From the NCBI GenBank assembly GCA_020426125.1, contig JAGQQQ010000074.1:1-16251 (forward strand): a DNA stretch of 16,251 nt, given 5' to 3'. This document shows, piece after piece, positions 4,913-16,251 of the stretch (position 1 is its first letter; each line of letters starts with the position of its first letter). The stretch is from Planctomycetaceae bacterium. Its GTDB lineage: Bacteria; Planctomycetota; Planctomycetia; Planctomycetales; Planctomycetaceae. A program made the translations under genes and the position numbers. The notes under the pieces are model-generated. The model did no database searches and had not been told where the DNA came from. It was given only the letters and a program-made list of their open reading frames with translations.

Positions 4913-5515
4913 ATGCCGCAGAAATTCGCAAAGGAATTGTCCAATTCCCGCATCTCTTGGAGGAAGCTTGCTGGATTGCTCAAGAAGCAAGATTGGAAGA
5001 AGTTGGCTATCTGGGCAATCGTTTCCGTGTTGACGACCGGGGTTCCAGCTTCGCTTGAAGCAGCGGCGCGGAAGCTCGCCAGTGATTCGCTTTCTCTTGG
5101 GTTTGATGACCTCTATGCCCAAACAGCCCCACTCATTTGGGCCGTGACGATGGTCGCGTTTGCGGGGCATCGAGGTTGGCTATCCAACGGAGGGTTGCTT
5201 CCCGCATGTGGACTGCTCCTCTTGGGAGGATGGCTGGGCCATTTGCTTCAACACCCCGGAGCGGTCCAACCGGCTTCCGCCCTTTCCTCGGAAGGTCAGG
5301 GATTGTCCATTCTTCTCGTCTTTTCCGCCATCAATCTCGGACTCGCCTGGCTCGCCGCCTACGGCTGGGGCGCCTTTCTCTCCTCGATCGTCGTCGGCAC
5401 CGTTTTAGGAATCGGTTGGAGTAAAGGGCTTGAAAGCCTCTATCGCAGGGTCACGGCTGATCCGTCGCGTTCCCCGCGCACTCAGGAAAACCGCGAGTCA
5501 CGGCGCGCGGCTTGA
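4913..5515 (+). CDS. Small membrane protein of unknown function (about 4 TM segments)
   Basis: 200-aa ORF with several hydrophobic stretches (AIWAIVSVLTTGV, LIWAVTMVAFAG, LLPACGLLLLGGWLG, ILLVFSAINLGLAWLAAYGWGAFLSSIVVGTVLGIG). The codon bias fits the host. Confidence 0.5.
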   Translation: MPQKFAKELSNSRISWRKLAGLLKKQDWKKLAIWAIVSVLTTGVPASLEAAARKLASDSLSLGFDDLYAQTAPLIWAVTMVAFAGHRGWLSNGGLLPACGLLLLGGWLGHLLQHPGAVQPASALSSEGQGLSILLVFSAINLGLAWLAAYGWGAFLSSIVVGTVLGIGWSKGLESLYRRVTADPSRSPRTQENRESRRAA

Positions 5516-8848: not shown

Positions 8849-10051
8849 TCACTTGGCAAGTTTGATGCGGACGGTTTTGGATCCCTGATTGTCAGTGAGC
8901 TTTCCCCAGTCGTCTTGGCAGCGGAGATAAAGTTGTCCATCTGAGGGGGCGGTGAATGGTTCCCCGTCCGGGATAGGGAACGGTTCCCCCAGGACGTAGT
9001 CCTGAAAGATTATGCCAACCAGCTGTCCGTTTCCCTCCGAGGAATCCGGGCCAGTGGACCACTCTCCCGTTGCTGAGACGACATATTGCTCGCCTGCGAC
9101 GCACTTCGCACGGGAGGCCTGCCATCCTCGCTGAGCATCGACTTTGCAGGCGAGTTGGGCGGCGCCGACAAGCGGCCGGAATCGGGTCTTCCAGTCCCAA
9201 CCGCACAGGTCGGCGCGATAACCCGGTTCGAGATCTTGAAGAAAGAGCTGGTATTCAAATTCGATCTCTCGGAATTGGGTGCCGTAGGCATTGTTGAAGC
9301 CGGTGTTGTTGCCGGCCATCATTGCGAGTCCGAGCGGTTTGAACCGTTGGGAGTAATTCTCGTTGTAACCGAGCAGATGGCACAATACCCACCTCCAGGC
9401 ATAGTTTTGCCAGGAGTCCCCGGTCCGTTCCAACGGGTTATTCACAATGTCATCAAGCGGTTTCGGCTCTTCCGACTTGAGATATTCAATGACGTAAGGT
9501 GGAGCGTTGACTCCCTTTTCTCCGGCTTGAAAGTATTTTCCGACTTCGGCCATTCCCTCGGAATACCAAACCGGCCCAGTGGACCCGAAAGTCAGGCCGC
9601 AGTACGCGTGGATGGCTTCATGCATCGGTGTCTGGTGTTTGGACACCGCGAAGACGACGGCGTCCGCGTCGATTTTCGGTCCCCCCACATATTGCTGCAC
9701 ACGAGTGACGGTCAGACCTGCGCCACCTTGAATGGACGTGAGCCCCTCCGGCAGCATCTTCCCGCGTTCCTCGGGGGACCACCGGGAGAGATCCTCGACG
9801 ACGAACATCTGGATCCGCTTGCGGCAGGGATGGCCAAAATACTTGGAAACCAGTTCAATCATGGTTTCCAGATCCTTCAGAAGTTCGCGCGCGTCAACTT
9901 CCGAGAGATCGGTGTAAATCTGAAACGTCCGCGATTCATAGAGACGTGGGCCGCCTCCAGCGGAACCGGTACGCTGAGCCCAGACCGAATTCCCTGCCAT
10001 CAGGAAGACCGTGAGCAACGCGATACGGAACAGTGTTTTGGTTTCCCACAT
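8849..10051 (-). CDS. Secreted DUF1570-like protein with an HExxH motif (putative zinc-metallopeptidase-like, Planctomycetes-type)
   Basis: The ORF extends to 10129. The ATG at 10051 is directly followed by a signal peptide (MWETKTLFRIALLTVFLMAGNSVWAQ). An HEAIH motif lies in the central domain. My memory links this to the DUF1570 family, which is abundant in Planctomycetes. The antisense ORF 9086..10465 was rejected. Confidence 0.65.
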   Translation of the reverse strand: MWETKTLFRIALLTVFLMAGNSVWAQRTGSAGGGPRLYESRTFQIYTDLSEVDARELLKDLETMIELVSKYFGHPCRKRIQMFVVEDLSRWSPEERGKMLPEGLTSIQGGAGLTVTRVQQYVGGPKIDADAVVFAVSKHQTPMHEAIHAYCGLTFGSTGPVWYSEGMAEVGKYFQAGEKGVNAPPYVIEYLKSEEPKPLDDIVNNPLERTGDSWQNYAWRWVLCHLLGYNENYSQRFKPLGLAMMAGNNTGFNNAYGTQFREIEFEYQLFLQDLEPGYRADLCGWDWKTRFRPLVGAAQLACKVDAQRGWQASRAKCVAGEQYVVSATGEWSTGPDSSEGNGQLVGIIFQDYVLGEPFPIPDGEPFTAPSDGQLYLRCQDDWGKLTDNQGSKTVRIKLAK

Positions 10052-10512
10052 TCGTCGGACATCCTGGTGATGGGCCGCAGAAAACGATCTTGGGATTCTA
10101 CTCTTCCCCTTTGGGTGAGAACACCACACATCGGATCGGAAGATTCCCTTTCTTCCCTTTCCCTTAACCTGAATAGCGGCATCAACCTCATCGATTCAAC
10201 AGTGTCGATGGGGTGCGATGATTCAATTGTCTTGAACTGTGAGTCTTCTTTGCCGATCAGGAACCTCAGGTGTGATGCCCCATCAAGAAGATGGGGAACT
10301 CGCGACTGCCCGAGAGGTCCCGGAGAGACAAGCGGGCCAAAACGCGCAATCCGTAACGATGTGAGAATTGGAACAGAACGGTTCTTACTCGTGAACGGGA
10401 AAGGACGAGCCTCCGGTAGAGCACTCCTTTTCCAAAAACTCAACGAAGTGGTTCGTTTTTTTTGATCCGAACGGACCGGACTCCGTTTTCCCTACGTTGC
10501 CTCGACTTCGCG

Positions 10513-10530: not shown

Positions 10531-10609
10531 CCCCCGCATGGTTGGAAGAGTGGGCAATCCCGGAGAAGTTGACCGGTTGTCGCCCATTTCATTCCCGGGA
10601 CGAGTTTCC

Positions 10610-11236
10610 ATGGATACCGAATTCCTGACGCAGTGCCTGTCCTGGCCGGCCTTTCCCTTCACCTTTCTACTCGGACTGGTGATGGTGTACTGGCTGATGG
10701 TCATCTTCGGAGGCGGGATCGACATGATCGATCTCGACTTGGATATGGATGTCGACATGGACGCCGACGTCAGTGGATCACTTGCCGACTGGGGGATGAT
10801 GGGGGTCAAATGGTTCAATCTCGGTGATGTGCCACTCATGTTGTGGATGTCGATCCTCGCACTGACCTCCTGGTTGGTGACGATGACCTTCGACAAGGAC
10901 ATGGCCGCGGCGAGCAACTGGCAAATCGTGGGCGTCATCCTTCGCAATCTCGGAATTGGGTTATTCGCAGCGAAAGTTGTGACGCAGCCCCTCAAGGGAA
11001 AACTGAAACACAAAGAACCGCATCCGCCCAAGGAAATGTTGGGAATGCGCTGCACGGTCAAGACCGGGGAACTCACTCCGGAATTCGGGCAGATCGAATG
11101 CCCCATTGAAGACGGAGCCCCGTTGTATTTGAACGCGAGAACCGCCGAGGGAACGATCCCCCGCGGAGCGGTTGTCGAGATTATCGAATATCACCCCGAC
11201 TCCCGGCTGTATTACGTCCGGGGCGTTGACGCGTGA
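10610..11236 (+). CDS. NfeD/YqiJ-like membrane protein (OB-fold, SPFH-partner family)
   Basis: N-terminal hydrophobic segments, an acidic D/M repeat (DMIDLDLDMDVDMDADV), a second TM region, and a C-terminal beta-rich OB-like domain. Sits immediately upstream of a flotillin gene, which is the conserved NfeD-SPFH gene pairing. The ORF could also start at 10538, 24 codons earlier. Confidence 0.65.
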   Translation: MDTEFLTQCLSWPAFPFTFLLGLVMVYWLMVIFGGGIDMIDLDLDMDVDMDADVSGSLADWGMMGVKWFNLGDVPLMLWMSILALTSWLVTMTFDKDMAAASNWQIVGVILRNLGIGLFAAKVVTQPLKGKLKHKEPHPPKEMLGMRCTVKTGELTPEFGQIECPIEDGAPLYLNARTAEGTIPRGAVVEIIEYHPDSRLYYVRGVDA

Positions 11237-11380
11237 TCGCAATCGCTGTTTAGCCGGTCTCCTCCGGAAGCCGCTTGTTGAATTTGAATTCCTGGTTCGC
11301 GAAGTCGTTCTGAATTCGCGGACTTTTCGCACGCCATCATCAACTCACGTCACGCAACGCAACTTGCGAAAGGCTGACTC

Positions 11381-13489
11381 ATGCCACCGACCGAAGTTCT
11401 TTTCGCTCTCCTCGTCCTTGTGGGGATCCTGGTAGGAACCCTGATCATCATTTCCCGGTTCTATCGAAAAGTTGGACCGGATGAAGCCATCGTCCGAACC
11501 GGGATCGGGGGAATGCAGGTCACCTCCGGCGGCGGCATTATCGTTATTCCGATCATGCACCGCGCAGAGCAGATGGACCTTTCCGTCAAACGGCTGGAAA
11601 TCGCGCGTCGCGGAGTCTCGGGATTGATCTGTAAAGACAATGTCCGAGCCGACATCGAAGTGGCGTTCTTTGTCCGAGTCAACAACACCAAAGAAGACAT
11701 TATCCAAGTCGCCCAGGCTTTGGGATGTCGCCGCGCTTCTGAGAAAGCCGCACTCGTGGAGTTGTTTGACGCCAAGTTTTCGGAAGCTCTCAAAACGGTC
11801 GGAAAGCATTTCGAATTCATTGATCTCTACACCGAACGCGAGCAGTTCAAAGACGAGATCCTCAAGCACATCGGCCGCGATCTGAACGGCTACATCCTCG
11901 ATGACTGTGCGATCGACTTTCTGGAGCAGACGCCCATCGAGATGCTCAATGAGATGAACATTCTCGATGCGGAGGGGATCAAGAAGATTACGGATCTCAC
12001 TGCAAGGGAGCACATCCGTTCCAACGAGATTAAGCGTGAAAAAGAGAAAGTCATCAAGAAGCAGGATGTGGAAGCTCAGGAAGCGATCCTCGTTCTCGAA
12101 AAGCAACGGATCGAAGCGACCGAAAAACAAAAACGCGAAGTCGCAGAGATCGCCGCTCGCGAACATGCCGAAGCCGCTAAGGTCCAGGAAGAACAACGGC
12201 TCCGCTCCGAACAAGCCCGGATCATTACCGAGGAAGAGATCGCCGTCGCCGAACAGAACAAAGAACGGCAGGTCATCGTCGCCCAACGAAACAAAGAACG
12301 GACCGATGCGGTCGAGCGTGAACGTGTCGAGAAAGACCGGATGCTTGAAGTCACCGAACGGGAACGGATCGTCGGCCTGGCTTCGATCGAAAAAGAAAAG
12401 GCGATCGAAGTCGAGAAGCGAAACATCCAGGACGTGATCCGCGAACGTGTCGCCGTCGAACGCTCCGTTGTCGAAGAACAACAACGGATCAAAGACACCG
12501 AAGAATTCGCCACCGCCGACCGGGCGAAACGCGTGGCCATTACTCAAGCGGAGAAAGACGCTGAGGAAGCCTTGGTCAAACAGATCAAAGCCGCCGAAGC
12601 GGCCAAGCAAGCCGCGAGTTTCTCGGCCGAACAGGTGGTGATCGAAGCGGAAGCCCAACGCTCCGCCGCCGAGAAAGAGACCGCTGCCAAAAAGATGCTG
12701 GCCGAAGCCCGTCAGGCCGAGGTCGCCGCCGAGGGGTTGGCCGAAGCCCAGGTCATGTCCGTTCGCGCCGAAGCGGTCGAGAAGGAAGGGACCGCCGAAG
12801 CCAACGTCGTCCAGAAGAAACTCGTCGCCGAAGCGGAAGGCCAGAAAGCCAAAGCCGCCGCCATCGAGAAAGAAGGCATGGCCGAGAACACCGTGCTGGA
12901 GAACAAGTTCTACGCCGAAGCGCGTGGCATCGAGCAGAAGGCCGAAGCCATGAAACTGTTCGACGGCGTCGGACGCGAACACGAAGAGTTCAAACTCCGC
13001 CTCAACAAAGAAAAGGACATCGAGATTGCGGCCATCAACGCTCAGGTCGGCATCGCCCGCGAGCAATCCGAGATCGTCGCGAAGGCCCTCGAGTCGGCAC
13101 GCATCGACATTGTCGGCGGCGAGACACAGTTCTTTGACCGAATCATTGATTCCGTCAAAGCCGGCAAGAGCGTCGACCGGTTCGTGCAGAACTCGAGCGT
13201 CATCACCGACGTCAAAAACACCTTCTTCGAAGGCGAGTCGAACGGCGACTTCAAAGCGAACCTCGTCCGCTTCACCGAGAAGTTCAATCTGAGCTTCGAG
13301 GATGTGAAGGACCTGTCCGTCGCCGCGTTGTTGACGAAACTTCTCTTCGAAGCGGACGATGAGAGCGAAACAACCGCCCTGAAGCGGCTGCAACGGACCC
13401 TCAAATCGGCCGGCCTGCTCGACAAGAAAGTCTCCACCCTCGGCCTCGCCACCCTCGCCGGCGGGAAAGAAACGGAGTCGAACGCGTAG
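11381..13489 (+). CDS. Flotillin-like SPFH/band-7 protein (YqiK/FloA-like), extended 702-aa form
   Basis: N-terminal TM helix (LFALLVLVGILVGTLIIISRF). SPFH core (KVGPDEAIVRTGIGG...ADIEVAFFVRV). A very long E/A/K/R-rich coiled-coil flotillin repeat region. A flotillin-type C-terminal tail. Confidence 0.9.
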   Translation: MPPTEVLFALLVLVGILVGTLIIISRFYRKVGPDEAIVRTGIGGMQVTSGGGIIVIPIMHRAEQMDLSVKRLEIARRGVSGLICKDNVRADIEVAFFVRVNNTKEDIIQVAQALGCRRASEKAALVELFDAKFSEALKTVGKHFEFIDLYTEREQFKDEILKHIGRDLNGYILDDCAIDFLEQTPIEMLNEMNILDAEGIKKITDLTAREHIRSNEIKREKEKVIKKQDVEAQEAILVLEKQRIEATEKQKREVAEIAAREHAEAAKVQEEQRLRSEQARIITEEEIAVAEQNKERQVIVAQRNKERTDAVERERVEKDRMLEVTERERIVGLASIEKEKAIEVEKRNIQDVIRERVAVERSVVEEQQRIKDTEEFATADRAKRVAITQAEKDAEEALVKQIKAAEAAKQAASFSAEQVVIEAEAQRSAAEKETAAKKMLAEARQAEVAAEGLAEAQVMSVRAEAVEKEGTAEANVVQKKLVAEAEGQKAKAAAIEKEGMAENTVLENKFYAEARGIEQKAEAMKLFDGVGREHEEFKLRLNKEKDIEIAAINAQVGIAREQSEIVAKALESARIDIVGGETQFFDRIIDSVKAGKSVDRFVQNSSVITDVKNTFFEGESNGDFKANLVRFTEKFNLSFEDVKDLSVAALLTKLLFEADDESETTALKRLQRTLKSAGLLDKKVSTLGLATLAGGKETESNA
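12040..13000 (+). repeat. Degenerate in-frame tandem repeats (GCCGAAGC-type, EA-rich heptads) encoding the flotillin coiled coil
   Basis: Recurrent gccgaagcg / gaaaaagaaggc / cgcgaac units. This produces a fully open antisense frame (752-aa artefact ORF). Confidence 0.4.
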
Positions 13490-13506
13490 AATGGAACCCG
13501 GTGAGC

Positions 13507-13541
13507 GGACCAGGACGGGTGACAATCGTCCGTCCTGGTCC
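13507..13541 (+). terminator. Strong GC hairpin (12-bp perfect stem GGACCAGGACGG / CCGTCCTGGTCC, 11-nt loop) 18 nt after the flotillin stop; probable U-less intrinsic terminator
   Basis: Read directly from the sequence. No T-tract follows. The next gene starts 40 nt downstream. Confidence 0.45.
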
Positions 13542-13580
13542 TGCCTGGCTATTCCACGTCGATCAGAGTAGGAGTCGACA

Positions 13581-14186
13581 ATGATTCGCGTACCCCTTCG
13601 CAATCAACTCAAGAGTGTCTGGTCCGGTCGTGTTCGCCACGACTACGGGAAACACCGGATCAACTCCGAAAGGAGCCTCCAAGCTTCGCTCTGGGCGGGG
13701 CTGTGGCAGGAGTTCGAAAACGCGGGCTGGGAAAAGCAGCGCCGCATCCTGGTTGAACCGATCATGTTCCTTGGCGAGGAAAAGTCTGAGCGGCGGTTCC
13801 GCCCGGATCTCGTCATCTGCAATCGAAGGAGCATAATCGCAGTGATCGAAGTGAAGTATCGCCCTCATCGCTTACCACATCCCGAACATCCTTTCGCAAA
13901 AGATTTCGAATGCCTCAGCACGATGAGCACTGCTCAAGGGACAGAGAACATCCACTTCCTGGATTTTCGATATCGTGGGGCCTTAAGAAGAAAGAAAAGA
14001 TTCCATTTGAACAAAGAGACCCTCTTTGTCTGGTGTGGCTTCTACAGAATGGAGGGGGACGGAACGGAGCCATTTGACATCGCGTCTGTCACGAGTCGCC
14101 ATGCAAAGTTGAAAGGAAAGATACTGACCCTCCATGCGGTGACGCACGACGGTGCCCCTCCTTCATATGTGTCACAAGACAACTAA
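13581..14186 (+). CDS. Hypothetical protein with a PD-(D/E)xK nuclease-like core motif
   Basis: 201 aa. RFRPDLVICNRRSIIAVIEVKY carries a PD...(E)xK signature (PDLVI ... IEVK) after an upstream acidic residue. The 3' half lies in a markedly AT-richer stretch. Confidence 0.5.
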   Translation: MIRVPLRNQLKSVWSGRVRHDYGKHRINSERSLQASLWAGLWQEFENAGWEKQRRILVEPIMFLGEEKSERRFRPDLVICNRRSIIAVIEVKYRPHRLPHPEHPFAKDFECLSTMSTAQGTENIHFLDFRYRGALRRKKRFHLNKETLFVWCGFYRMEGDGTEPFDIASVTSRHAKLKGKILTLHAVTHDGAPPSYVSQDN

Positions 14187-14207
14187 TCTGAGACAGAAAA
14201 TGTCATA

Positions 14208-14507
14208 ATGGCTACGCGAAAGCCATTTATTGTGATAATCGGCGGACCCAACGGGAGCGGAAAGTCAACCTCTGCCCCGCCGCTTGTCAAGAAACAATTG
14301 AAAATCAACCAGCGAGAAAACCACGACCCCGTTAAGCAATTTGCAGACATTAAAGCAACGGAACGAGAAGTTGAAGTTGCCGTCGCGGAAGCGATCAGAC
14401 AACACCTTCGCGCCGGGCGGCAAATTCCCGTCTGGCAGAATGGCCAAGTCGTTTGGGTCACACCGGAGATCGAAGACACACCGACGGAGGAAATAGAACG
14501 CGGATGA
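14208..14507 (+). CDS. Truncated P-loop NTPase (zeta-toxin/AAA_33 kinase-like N-terminus fused to an unrelated short tail); possible gene remnant
   Basis: Walker A IVIIGGPNGSGKST at residues 8-21. It is only 99 aa, whereas this kinase family is usually about 180-200 aa. The codon usage is A-ending and atypical for the host. Its stop TGA overlaps a downstream ATG (ATGA at 14504-14507). Confidence 0.45.
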   Translation: MATRKPFIVIIGGPNGSGKSTSAPPLVKKQLKINQRENHDPVKQFADIKATEREVEVAVAEAIRQHLRAGRQIPVWQNGQVVWVTPEIEDTPTEEIERG

Positions 14508-14581
14508 CGCGGATCTGGCGGATTGTCTCGGATGACAAGTCGGGATTGGATGTCCTTATCGATGAAGAAGAGGCTGAAGAG

Positions 14582-15010
14582 ATGGACAACCGAGAGAGTG
14601 AGCCGTTGCTGCACCGTGAGACCACGGAAATCATCTTGCGTGCCTTTTATGATGTCTACAACGGTTTGGGATATGGCTTTCTGGAGAAAGTGTATGAAAA
14701 CTCGCTTGCGTTGAAGCTTCGACATACGGGGCTCAAAGTGATGACGCAGTGTCCGATTCGTGTCTACTTTGAGGGAAGCCTCGTCGGAGAGTATTTCGCA
14801 GATCTGATCATCAACGAGACCGTCCTCATCGAGATCAAGGCGGCGGAGTCCCTTCGTCGCGAACATGAAGCTCAACTGACGAACTATTTGAAGGCGACCC
14901 CGATTGAAGTTGGACTCCTCCTCAACTTCGGACCGCGTCCTGAGTTCTCTCGTAAAGTGTTTATGAATCGCCGGAAACCGCACCTCACACACAAGTCCAA
15001 TCCGTCCTGA
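14582..15010 (+). CDS. GxxExxY protein (PDDEXK_3 / PD-(D/E)xK-fold family of unknown function)
   Basis: GLGYGFLEKVYENSLALKL ... GEYFADLIINETVLIEIKAAESL ... LLLNFG matches the GxxExxY family signature along its full length. An alternative upstream start at 14504 overlaps the previous ORF's stop. Confidence 0.8.
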   Translation: MDNRESEPLLHRETTEIILRAFYDVYNGLGYGFLEKVYENSLALKLRHTGLKVMTQCPIRVYFEGSLVGEYFADLIINETVLIEIKAAESLRREHEAQLTNYLKATPIEVGLLLNFGPRPEFSRKVFMNRRKPHLTHKSNPS

Positions 15011-15033
15011 TCCGCCAAATCCGCGTCATCCGC

Positions 15034-15057
15034 GTTCCATTCCCCTACCAATGGAAC
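15034..15057 (+). other. Intergenic hairpin GTTCCATT-(8 nt)-AATGGAAC between the GxxExxY gene and the downstream large ORF
   Basis: 8-bp perfect inverted repeat with no U-tract. It is preceded by a small direct repeat, ATCCGCG x2. Confidence 0.25.
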
Positions 15058-15073
15058 CGAGAGCATTGCCACC

Positions 15074-16251
15074 ATGTCTGACCAACCGAAAGCGCCGGCT
15101 CAATTGGAGTCGGGGACTTATGAGATTCTTCGCAACCGTCTCCGCGGGCATGGGGACGATTTGCGTTCTCGCTTGAACCAGCTGAACTCCAGTCGGAAGG
15201 AGGTCTTCGGGTCGATCGACCTGAAGCTGCTCAACACCGAGCGGGTGACCACCGAGCACAACTGCGTCCCTCGCGATATGGTCGCCTTCGGCAACAAGTT
15301 CCTCTTTGGCTACAACGTCTACTTCGGCCTCAAGACCGAGCGCAATATCAGCGACGTCTTCGCGATCTACACCTTCGACGAAGAATCACACACCTTTCAG
15401 GAAGGTTCCCTCGCGACGCTCCAGGATGCCCGGTTCCAGAAGGACTTCCAGGACGTCTACCGATACTACAAAGACGCAACATTTGCGAAGTTCTTTGTGA
15501 ACGGCCCGCACCTGTACTTTGTCTTTCAGGTGGGCAAGAACGCCAATGACTTTAAGGCGTTCAAATGGCTCATTCGCGGCGACGAACTTCAATACCTCGA
15601 CAATCGTAGCGACCACGAGGTGAAGAACCCGCCGCAACATGAGTTTGAATGGAAGCGGACCACCCGTGATTCCCAGCGACACGGAGCCCACCCGCACGTC
15701 TCCATTGAGGACCGGCTCTTCGTCGAGACGGTCGGCGGCGACCTCACCATCAAGATTGAAAACAATACCAACAGCGGCGAAGGGATCTACGCCGAGCCGG
15801 TCGATGATCCCGATCAAACGCTTGACGACGCGGAGATCTACTATGCGATCGTTGGCAGCCTCATTCTTTTGAAGATCCGCCCCTACCAGGAAAGCAAGTG
15901 GCGGTACATCCTGTACAACGAAAAGCTCGAAAAGGCCCAACGACTCGACGCCATTCAAGATGCGTGTGTATTGCTCCCGGATGACCATGGCCTCATCTTC
16001 GCGAACGGCTACTATCTCCAGACCGGCGAACAGAAGGTCTTTGACACATCCATTCAGGGACTGAATTTCGAGCGACGGATCATCTCCCCCAATGGCGAAG
16101 ACACGCTGTTCGTCTTCTATCAGCCCGAACAGGGAGCCTACGTGCTGCTGGGCTATAACGTGATTTCCCAGTCGGTCGAGACGCCGATCATCTGCCATGG
16201 ATTTACGATGTTCCATGGCGGGCAGATGACGCTGTTCAAGGCCCATCACGA
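15074..16251 (+). CDS. Large conserved-looking hypothetical protein, N-terminal 392 aa only (continues past the window end)
   Basis: ATG at 15074. The frame stays open to the last base with strong GC3 bias and a globular, aromatic-rich composition (YNVYFGLKTERNISDVFAIYTFDEE...). The antisense 287-aa ORF 15386..16249 was rejected as an artefact. Confidence 0.65.
   Translation, partial: MSDQPKAPAQLESGTYEILRNRLRGHGDDLRSRLNQLNSSRKEVFGSIDLKLLNTERVTTEHNCVPRDMVAFGNKFLFGYNVYFGLKTERNISDVFAIYTFDEESHTFQEGSLATLQDARFQKDFQDVYRYYKDATFAKFFVNGPHLYFVFQVGKNANDFKAFKWLIRGDELQYLDNRSDHEVKNPPQHEFEWKRTTRDSQRHGAHPHVSIEDRLFVETVGGDLTIKIENNTNSGEGIYAEPVDDPDQTLDDAEIYYAIVGSLILLKIRPYQESKWRYILYNEKLEKAQRLDAIQDACVLLPDDHGLIFANGYYLQTGEQKVFDTSIQGLNFERRIISPNGEDTLFVFYQPEQGAYVLLGYNVISQSVETPIICHGFTMFHGGQMTLFKAHH

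Follow-up and report, generated by a model that had tools for sequence, protein, structure and literature searches.

The window analysed here is an entire contig of 16,251 bp from a metagenome-assembled Planctomycetaceae bacterium. Near its end, three small open reading frames (ORFs) of the + strand occupy the spacer between a flotillin gene and a DUF3686 gene (Table 1). They encode p201 (locus tag KDA80_02255), a protein with a predicted restriction-endonuclease fold; p99, in which the stub of a zeta-toxin-like kinase is joined to a small partner protein; and a GxxExxY (PDDEXK_3) nuclease-fold protein whose gene stands between two inverted-repeat arms. The frames extend over 13581-14186, 14208-14507 and 14453-15010, and the third offers two possible starts, an ATG at 14504 with an ATGA overlap and an ATG at 14582 that leaves a gap of 74 nt. 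Based on the comparison with relatives, the latter is the likely start of the 142-aa protein. An earlier note, written from the letters of this stretch alone, had read the strand, the overlap and the 74-nt gap correctly, while the gap between p201 and p99 is 21 nt and not the 22 nt it had given. That note had interpreted the ORFs as the remnant of one acquired nuclease/toxin module; our analysis indicates that the spacer probably holds three independent small accessory or selfish genes, co-directional with the conserved operon around them.

Table 1. Features of the variable spacer and its bordering operon genes in the window, and spacer contents at related loci (positions within the respective locus)
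Feature	Position	Strand	Basis or description
YqiJ/NfeD-like membrane protein, first operon gene	10538-11236	+	weak YqiJ_N match, E = 0.0019
Flotillin-like protein (SPFH and coiled-coil), 702 aa	11381-13489	+	partial match to NCBIfam FloT, 3.3e-07
Empty palindromic element directly after the flotillin stop codon	13488-13555	.	12-bp perfect stem, 13507-18/13530-41
p201, orphan PD-(D/E)xK (restriction-endonuclease-fold) protein, intact	13581-14186	+	predicted fold and invariant catalytic residues
p99, in-frame deletion chimera	14208-14507	+	blastp, HMMER classes, AlphaFold2 (AF2) model
Left inverted-repeat arm	14489-14523	.	three GCGGAT units 9 nt apart (14500, 14509, 14518)
GxxExxY/PDDEXK_3 nuclease-fold protein, 142 aa, intact	14582-15010	+	PF13366, TIGR04256
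Right inverted-repeat arm	15010-15044	.	ATCCGC units at 15010, 15019, 15028
Short hairpin after the right arm, just 5' of the DUF3686 start	15034-15058
DUF3686 protein, N-terminal 392 aa, runs off the contig end	15074-16251	+	PF12458, 1e-167
Spacer of locus L006	1840-1990		only a hairpin with a stem of about 30 nt, sequence unrelated to that of the window, without cargo
Spacer of locus L005	7388-7976		different ORF, 164-189 aa, weak DUF2730 match, between 46-nt inverted repeats of CGCGGAG units
Spacers of loci L004 and L029			GxxExxY gene between inverted repeats
Spacer of locus L007			intact zeta-like kinase and small ORF

The spacer is bordered upstream by the flotillin stop codon and downstream by the DUF3686 gene, a family whose Pfam description reads 'ATPase involved in DNA repair'. 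Scanning the DUF3686 fragment against species-representative genomes yielded 28 related loci, and in about 20 of these, drawn from three phyla (Planctomycetota, Bacteroidota and Gammaproteobacteria), the YqiJ-like, flotillin-like and DUF3686 genes were consecutive, with the YqiJ-like homologue directly 5' of the flotillin gene. The flotillin homologues adjoining DUF3686 genes in these groups were 41-77% identical to the window protein. Since this triad has been kept as neighbours across three phyla, a functional link between the flotillin scaffold and the DUF3686 protein is suggested. Three Planctomycetaceae loci (L008, L009 and L010) carried a DUF3686 homologue at 68-72% identity, and neither a flotillin nor a YqiJ-like gene was detected in the upstream flank covered, which measured about 4.4 kb for L008 and 8 kb for each of L009 and L010; the homologue there may be a paralogue or belong to a rearranged operon.

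The distance between the flotillin and DUF3686 genes was about 130-700 nt in the related loci, compared with 1585 nt in the window, and the content of the spacer differed even among relatives with 73-77% protein identity (Table 1). In L005, in L006 and in every relative more distant than these, the spacer had neither a p201, a p99 nor a GxxExxY gene. The block is an insertion relative to the conserved operon, a possibility that the earlier note had raised and that the synteny comparison bears out, while an orthologous array in all relatives, which the same note had named as evidence to the contrary, was not what the variable spacers contained.

The GxxExxY protein, recognized as such by the earlier note, passed the thresholds of both curated models (PF13366, 128.8 bits against a cut-off of 22, 1.7e-37; TIGR04256, 121.4 bits against a cut-off of 35, 2.3e-35). 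It contains the motifs GFLEKVY, FADLI and IEIK and keeps every catalytic residue; a sequence search of the PDB gave no meaningful match. The arms enclosing its gene are 35 nt each and 91% complementary, and their 16-mer core occurs twice in the window, only in the arms, against 0.01 occurrences expected. The left arm also supplies the last six codons and the stop codon of p99. The empty palindromic element behind the flotillin gene has a predicted fold of -45.5 kcal/mol, and its flanks are degenerate copies of the GxxExxY arms, with a score of 27 against a shuffle maximum of 23 when aligned to the reverse complement of the right arm and p = 0.004 when aligned to the inner end of that arm. A 9-bp direct repeat, AATGGAACC (13490 and 15050), brackets the whole insert and was considered as a target-site duplication; because both copies are part of arm-like sequence, this reading was dropped.

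The association of gene and repeat extended beyond the window. All four GxxExxY genes of planctomycete loci had arms of 32-43 nt that contain the same core and are 87-97% complementary, and the repeat-flanked copies in L004, L029 and L007 were 60-67% identical to the window protein. In L007 the unit occupies another spacer of this operon, the one that separates the YqiJ-like gene from the flotillin gene. When metagenomes were scanned for the core motif, at least 120 loci were obtained; the pair counts that follow cover these, the previously retrieved loci and the window. Among the matches listed, at least 38 convergent pairs lay 3-135 nt apart as empty hairpins and at least five lay 176-274 nt apart, while seven of the eight pairs spaced by 419-549 nt enclosed a GxxExxY ORF, in either orientation and with 31-67% identity to the window protein. 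The repeat family consists mostly of empty hairpins and sometimes carries a GxxExxY gene in the loop. One long-loop pair of GCGGAT-type arms (L121, 5285-5804) had no GxxExxY ORF; the region is instead traversed by another open frame, of about 190 aa. At least five GCGGAT-type hairpins occurred within a few kb on some soil metagenome contigs (L064, 800-5000; L118, 3400-13750), and the repeat can therefore be very dense in certain genomes.

GxxExxY genes picked without the motif, on plasmids and secondary replicons, were co-directional with their neighbours in short operon spacers, as in Sphingomonas (fabD-GxxExxY-fabG-acpP-fabF), Bacteroides (radA-GxxExxY) and Bernardetia (ade-GxxExxY-manC), cases covered by L163 (1380-1900), L164 (1420-1895) and L162 (1484-1934). 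The Bacteroides and Bernardetia copies were flanked by 28-30-nt inverted repeats of CACAGAG/CGCAGAG/CACGGAG units, for which none of 300 shuffles scored as high. Across the three cases the flanking arrays were made up of CACAGAG, CGCAGAG or CGCGAAG units. On a Fusobacteria plasmid (L159, 1190-1940) the GxxExxY gene was flanked by a direct, not inverted, repeat of about 45 nt (…ATCAGTGAAAAYCAGAG…TAATCCGTGYACCTA).

The GxxExxY gene and its two 35-nt arms probably form a discrete unit that belongs to a dispersed family of palindromic repeats. The nuclease would serve these repeats as their cognate enzyme, in analogy to the REPtron, in which a RAYT transposase gene is flanked by repetitive extragenic palindromes (REPs) or REPINs (Di Nocera et al. 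2013, PMC3733652), and hairpin-forming arms would allow the unit to reside between operon genes at little polar cost. A different and rather unlikely explanation is that the arms form an RNA-level stem, as in rRNA intervening sequences, at which cutting by RNase III would free the GxxExxY mRNA from the transcript of the operon, or represent host REP-like terminators or insulators beside which GxxExxY genes persist by chance. The constant transcribed orientation of the unit within operon spacers, the long predicted stems and the large excess of empty over gene-bearing hairpins among the matches listed would all agree with this. However, the arm mismatches of the window, L007 and L029, a small sample of five, are A·C, C·A, C·C and A·A, so that no G·U pair would arise from them in the sense transcript, and Rfam gave no match in 13300-15300. 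In addition, the same repeat core accompanies GxxExxY proteins down to 31% identity, and a cognate protein-DNA relation therefore fits better than coincidence.

Among the three genes only p99 is decayed, and the description of it in the earlier note, as an ORF with only the Walker A end of a zeta-type kinase, was accurate. Its match to Zeta_toxin (PF06414) reached 15.5 bits against a cut-off of 22.3 and was confined to residues 4-31, as were all its P-loop model matches, each of them below threshold. Instead of the whole-domain match that defines a zeta toxin, the alignment showed the core beyond Walker A to be deleted. The intact counterpart was found in L007, where a kinase matching Zeta_toxin above threshold (47.1 bits; full-length relatives overall reached 29-47 bits) ends in a stop codon that overlaps the start of a 64-aa ORF as ATGA. 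By blastp, p99 residues 1-44 matched the N-terminus of this kinase (41% identity) and residues 29-90 matched the 64-aa ORF from its second residue (38% identity). Residues 1 to about 28 of p99 are the Walker A stub and residues about 29 to 90 the complete partner protein, while the FVNAD and ETTLASR motifs of the kinase core are missing. The stub was unstructured in the AF2 model, and the partner domain, a C-terminal helix and beta-hairpin, was predicted with a local distance difference test score (pLDDT) of 90-97. No structural neighbour and no Pfam family were found for the partner domain, and a PADLOC search with p99 returned P-loop noise only (best E = 5e-4, over the Walker A region).

Word-indexed homologue searches with p99 and the small ORF of L007 returned the queries alone. 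An exhaustive HMMER search with p99 yielded 104 proteins in three classes, namely free-standing partners about 57-90 aa long that bear the motif A[VI]R.A…H.R.G..I.VWRDG.VVWI.PEEI, zeta-like kinases fused to the partner domain (210-277 aa), and at least seven stub-plus-partner proteins of 81-119 aa from metagenomes which resemble p99 and each have a different junction position. Because the junctions differ, repeated independent deletions are indicated rather than one conserved architecture. The ancestral form was probably a two-gene unit of a zeta-toxin-like kinase translationally coupled to a small downstream partner, from which an internal in-frame deletion removed the whole kinase core and joined kinase codon 28 or thereabouts to the start of the partner ORF. 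The product would be a kinase-dead protein that still bears a complete, well-folded partner domain.

The architecture of the kinase-partner unit comprises ATGA coupling, natural kinase-partner fusions and repeated loss of the kinase core. We infer that the L007-type kinase is a toxin and the partner its neutralizer. If so, p99 would be a disarmed toxin that has retained its neutralizer, and the repeated in-frame loss of the core would reflect selection against the toxin. No epsilon/PezA-type antitoxin gene was found upstream; p99 is preceded by p201 and the L007 kinase by about 200 nt of non-coding sequence.

The PD...ExK signature that the earlier note had pointed out in the 201-aa protein belongs to an intact gene. 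p201 has 110 homologues of about 185 aa and no named family, and across these E30, E59, D76, E90 and K92 (E/D/ExK) are invariant, every one of them being kept in the window protein. As expected for the PD-(D/E)xK superfamily, the predicted structure has an alpha/beta core with the conserved acidic residues and the lysine on the second and third strands. Searches against Pfam, NCBIfam, PADLOC and PHROGs gave no match, and a PDB sequence search with the p201 profile gave no meaningful one. Compared with Type II restriction endonucleases of the BamHI/BglII/BstYI group and with NucC, p201 showed 6-11% identity and Foldseek TM-scores of at most 0.39, and it is shorter than NucC. Neither a methyltransferase, as in Type II restriction-modification, nor a cyclic-oligonucleotide synthase or CRISPR neighbour, as for a NucC-type effector, was present in the window or in five homologue neighbourhoods.

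These five neighbourhoods had no neighbour in common with each other or with the window, and none held a kinase, partner or GxxExxY gene beside the p201 homologue. Three loci with an identical p201 (L001-L003) were set aside as candidates for new contexts, as they are the same locus as the window. Inverted repeats flanking p201 and four homologues did not exceed those of shuffled sequences, and p201 is therefore not a repeat-bounded unit. One homologue, P0034 (L036, 299-9800), resides in an integron-like array of many small co-directional genes with a tyrosine-recombinase gene alongside on the opposite strand. The array is rich in toxin-antitoxin genes (HigB, YoeB/Phd, HicB, PIN/VapB), and ...GCGTTA(T/G) repeats recur at its gene boundaries, one of them (4962-4990) just 5' of the p201 homologue. 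In array, recombinase and boundary repeats this locus resembles integron cassettes; unlike these, p201 of the window lacks an attC-like site, has no integrase in its vicinity and is separated from p99 by only 21 nt. p201 is probably a free-standing, Mg-dependent endonuclease-fold gene of a family whose members travel singly, and it presumably cuts DNA.

The view of the earlier note, that a single horizontally acquired nuclease/toxin module arrived in one piece and then partly decayed, is improbable. It is favored by the shared direction and tight spacing of the genes, by their being extra relative to the conserved operon, by the true decay of one component and by base composition, since nowhere else on the contig is the GC content of a stretch as low. 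The GC content was 0.522 in 13581-15010 and 0.507 in 13850-14510, compared with 0.564 in the rest of the window and a window mean of 0.5605; the drop described in the earlier note is real but small, and its background of about 62 percent was too high. At each scale tried the lowest-GC segment of the contig fell in the block, about 2.5-3 standard deviations (SD) under the mean, with patch minima of 0.467, 0.490, 0.502 and 0.519 and window means ± SD of 0.560 ± 0.033, 0.561 ± 0.025, 0.561 ± 0.020 and 0.562 ± 0.017 for 300, 600, 1000 and 1430 nt, respectively. Outside the patch, 300-nt dips reached 0.483-0.497 (at 301, 11761 and 8401). The GC content at third codon positions (GC3) was 0.62 in p201, 0.54 in p99 and 0.63 in the GxxExxY gene, compared with 0.71 in the flanking flotillin and 0.75 in the DUF3686 gene, and a GC3 of 0.62 also occurs in two other window genes, which makes the codon-level signal weak. 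GC is thus not uniform across the region, whereas the codon deviation is slight, and the A-ending codons noted earlier are in excess in p99 (A3 = 0.32) but not in p201 or the GxxExxY gene.

Against a single module, the components were never found together elsewhere. The GxxExxY unit has boundaries of its own and, in L004 and L029, is found at this site unaccompanied by p201 or p99, and the intact kinase pair of L007 is present at this site without p201 or GxxExxY. Decay, which the earlier note had ascribed to the module, affects p99 as a remnant of a zeta-like kinase but neither p201 nor GxxExxY, whose catalytic residues are complete. Its suggestion of a defence or abortive-infection island likewise lost ground: PADLOC gave nothing above noise for any component and no meaningful match for p201 or GxxExxY, and PHROGs nothing of note. 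As to a genomic island or prophage, no integrase was found among the window ORFs, no tRNA in the window and no att site, and the only flanking direct repeats were short arm-related copies.

Similarly doubtful is a functional pairing of p201 with p99 in this genome, in which p99 would be no relic but a working protein whose partner domain was recruited to regulate or inhibit the p201 nuclease. The 21-nt gap on a shared strand, the complete and confidently folded partner domain and the recurrence of stub-plus-partner proteins in other metagenomes, which suggests that this form is tolerated or selected, speak for such a unit. A partner-like ORF was, however, found in none of the five p201-homologue neighbourhoods, the partner family is otherwise tied to zeta-like kinases by fusion or ATGA coupling, and the differing junctions point to repeated independent deletions. 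Hardly any credence can be given to the three ORFs being ordinary, vertically inherited accessory members of the flotillin operon, since their shared strand and orientation and the presence of GxxExxY in the same spacer of L004 and L029 are set against their absence from the spacers of L005, L006 and all more distant relatives, GC and GC3 below those of the flanking operon genes, and a closest p201 homologue that is only 42% identical, with homologues in other phyla and contexts.

Several observations weigh against three independent genes with a repeat-bounded GxxExxY unit among them. The metagenome loci were picked by the repeat motif, which biases the association, and only about ten examples were picked without it. 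The Sphingomonas gene has a unit array on just one of its sides, and the GxxExxY genes of Gemmatirosa and of the Fusobacteria plasmid showed no inverted repeat. No target-site duplication was seen around the unit in the window. All three genes are known from sequence and models, so that their enzymatic activities and any mobility mechanism are predictions, and within the genome of the window the repeat and GxxExxY copies were seen on this 16-kb contig only. The window p201 has a tyrosine in place of the near-invariant histidine at position 155 and may therefore be drifting, and, given the 21-nt gap, p201 and p99 may conceivably form a functional pair peculiar to this genome.

Elsewhere in the window, the ORFs with family matches were of housekeeping type (BamB-like propeller, ABC ATPase, PfkB kinase, LeuA-like synthase), and several further ORFs had no family match. 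Two overlapping ORFs of opposite strands at 8849-10465 (426 aa, minus; 459 aa, plus) both lacked a Pfam or NCBIfam match. A 752-aa minus-strand ORF (11345-13603) shadows the flotillin gene and is most likely spurious, and a 269-aa minus-strand ORF (14183-14992) was rejected as spurious, having no family match and overlapping two supported genes. An AT skew of 0.4-0.5 over 12000-13000 corresponds to the Glu/Lys/Ala-rich coiled-coil part of flotillin. The promoter and terminator scan gave background levels only.

The wider reading that we put forward, tentatively and as a whole, is that GxxExxY genes and arms of 9-nt units could constitute a widespread, so far undescribed class of REPtron-like selfish elements, next to a family of neutralizer-bearing zeta-like kinases. 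In such elements a PD-(D/E)xK nuclease, not an HUH transposase, would be cognate to the palindromic repeats (units GCGGAT, CACAGAG, CGCGGAG), the repeats would persist mainly as empty hairpins, and gene-bearing copies would insert co-directionally in housekeeping spacers (flotillin-DUF3686, fabD-fabG, 3' of radA). The zeta-like kinases would carry a C-terminal or downstream neutralizer and would repeatedly lose their toxic core by in-frame deletion.

We regard the locus as a whole as ordinary and of moderate interest, which lies in the repeat-GxxExxY association and the recurrent loss of the kinase core. For annotation it illustrates that a low-GC cluster of ORFs resembling nucleases and toxins may consist of unrelated selfish genes that have gathered in a permissive operon spacer and need not be a defence island. 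Three leads arise. One is the p201 family, so far without a name, which has the restriction-endonuclease fold, a length of about 185 aa and at least 110 members and occurs as a solo gene. Another is the new partner domain of about 45 aa with which zeta-like kinases are paired or fused, and the third is the association of GxxExxY genes with inverted arms of 9-nt units. If the kinase core is lost repeatedly while the partner is kept, this would argue genetically for toxin neutralization by the partner. If the GxxExxY nuclease acts on the arms, PF13366, a family of unknown function, would acquire a role as the dedicated enzyme of one palindromic-repeat class. The papers found on GxxExxY or PDDEXK_3 contained incidental mentions only, and Steczkiewicz et al. 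give the function of PDDEXK_3 as "Unknown" (PMC3424549).

Among the known zeta-type systems, epsilon/zeta, PezAT and EzeT (PMC5923241, PMC10532202, PMC4826407), the likeness lies in the full-length relatives of the p99 stub, which likewise pass the Zeta_toxin threshold; the kinase core itself is deleted in the window p99. Unlike epsilon and PezA, the partner is encoded downstream and not upstream, and it is a putative neutralizer without Pfam family or structural neighbour. EzeT, a single-polypeptide zeta toxin-antitoxin with an N-terminal antitoxin part (PMC4826407), is the nearest precedent for a covalent link, as many p99 relatives carry the putative neutralizing domain in the same polypeptide, in their case at the C-terminus or else downstream.

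The GxxExxY unit resembles a REPtron in that a gene stands between inverted copies of a short palindromic repeat which, in the same genomes, is far more abundant as empty intergenic hairpins or doublets. It differs in that the enclosed protein has the PD-(D/E)xK fold of PF13366 and is not an HUH/tyrosine transposase of the IS200/IS605-like type, and its arms are arrays of 9-nt units and not a GTAG-tagged stem-loop. CGTC-type REPs are described as lacking a dedicated transposase (PMC3733652). The arm core (ATCCGCGTCATCCGCG) contains CGTC. The ORF-bearing intervening sequences of 23S rRNA also place a small ORF between complementary ends within an essential transcribed unit. Compared with these, the GxxExxY unit is located between protein-coding genes and not in rRNA, and its cargo is a nuclease-fold protein.

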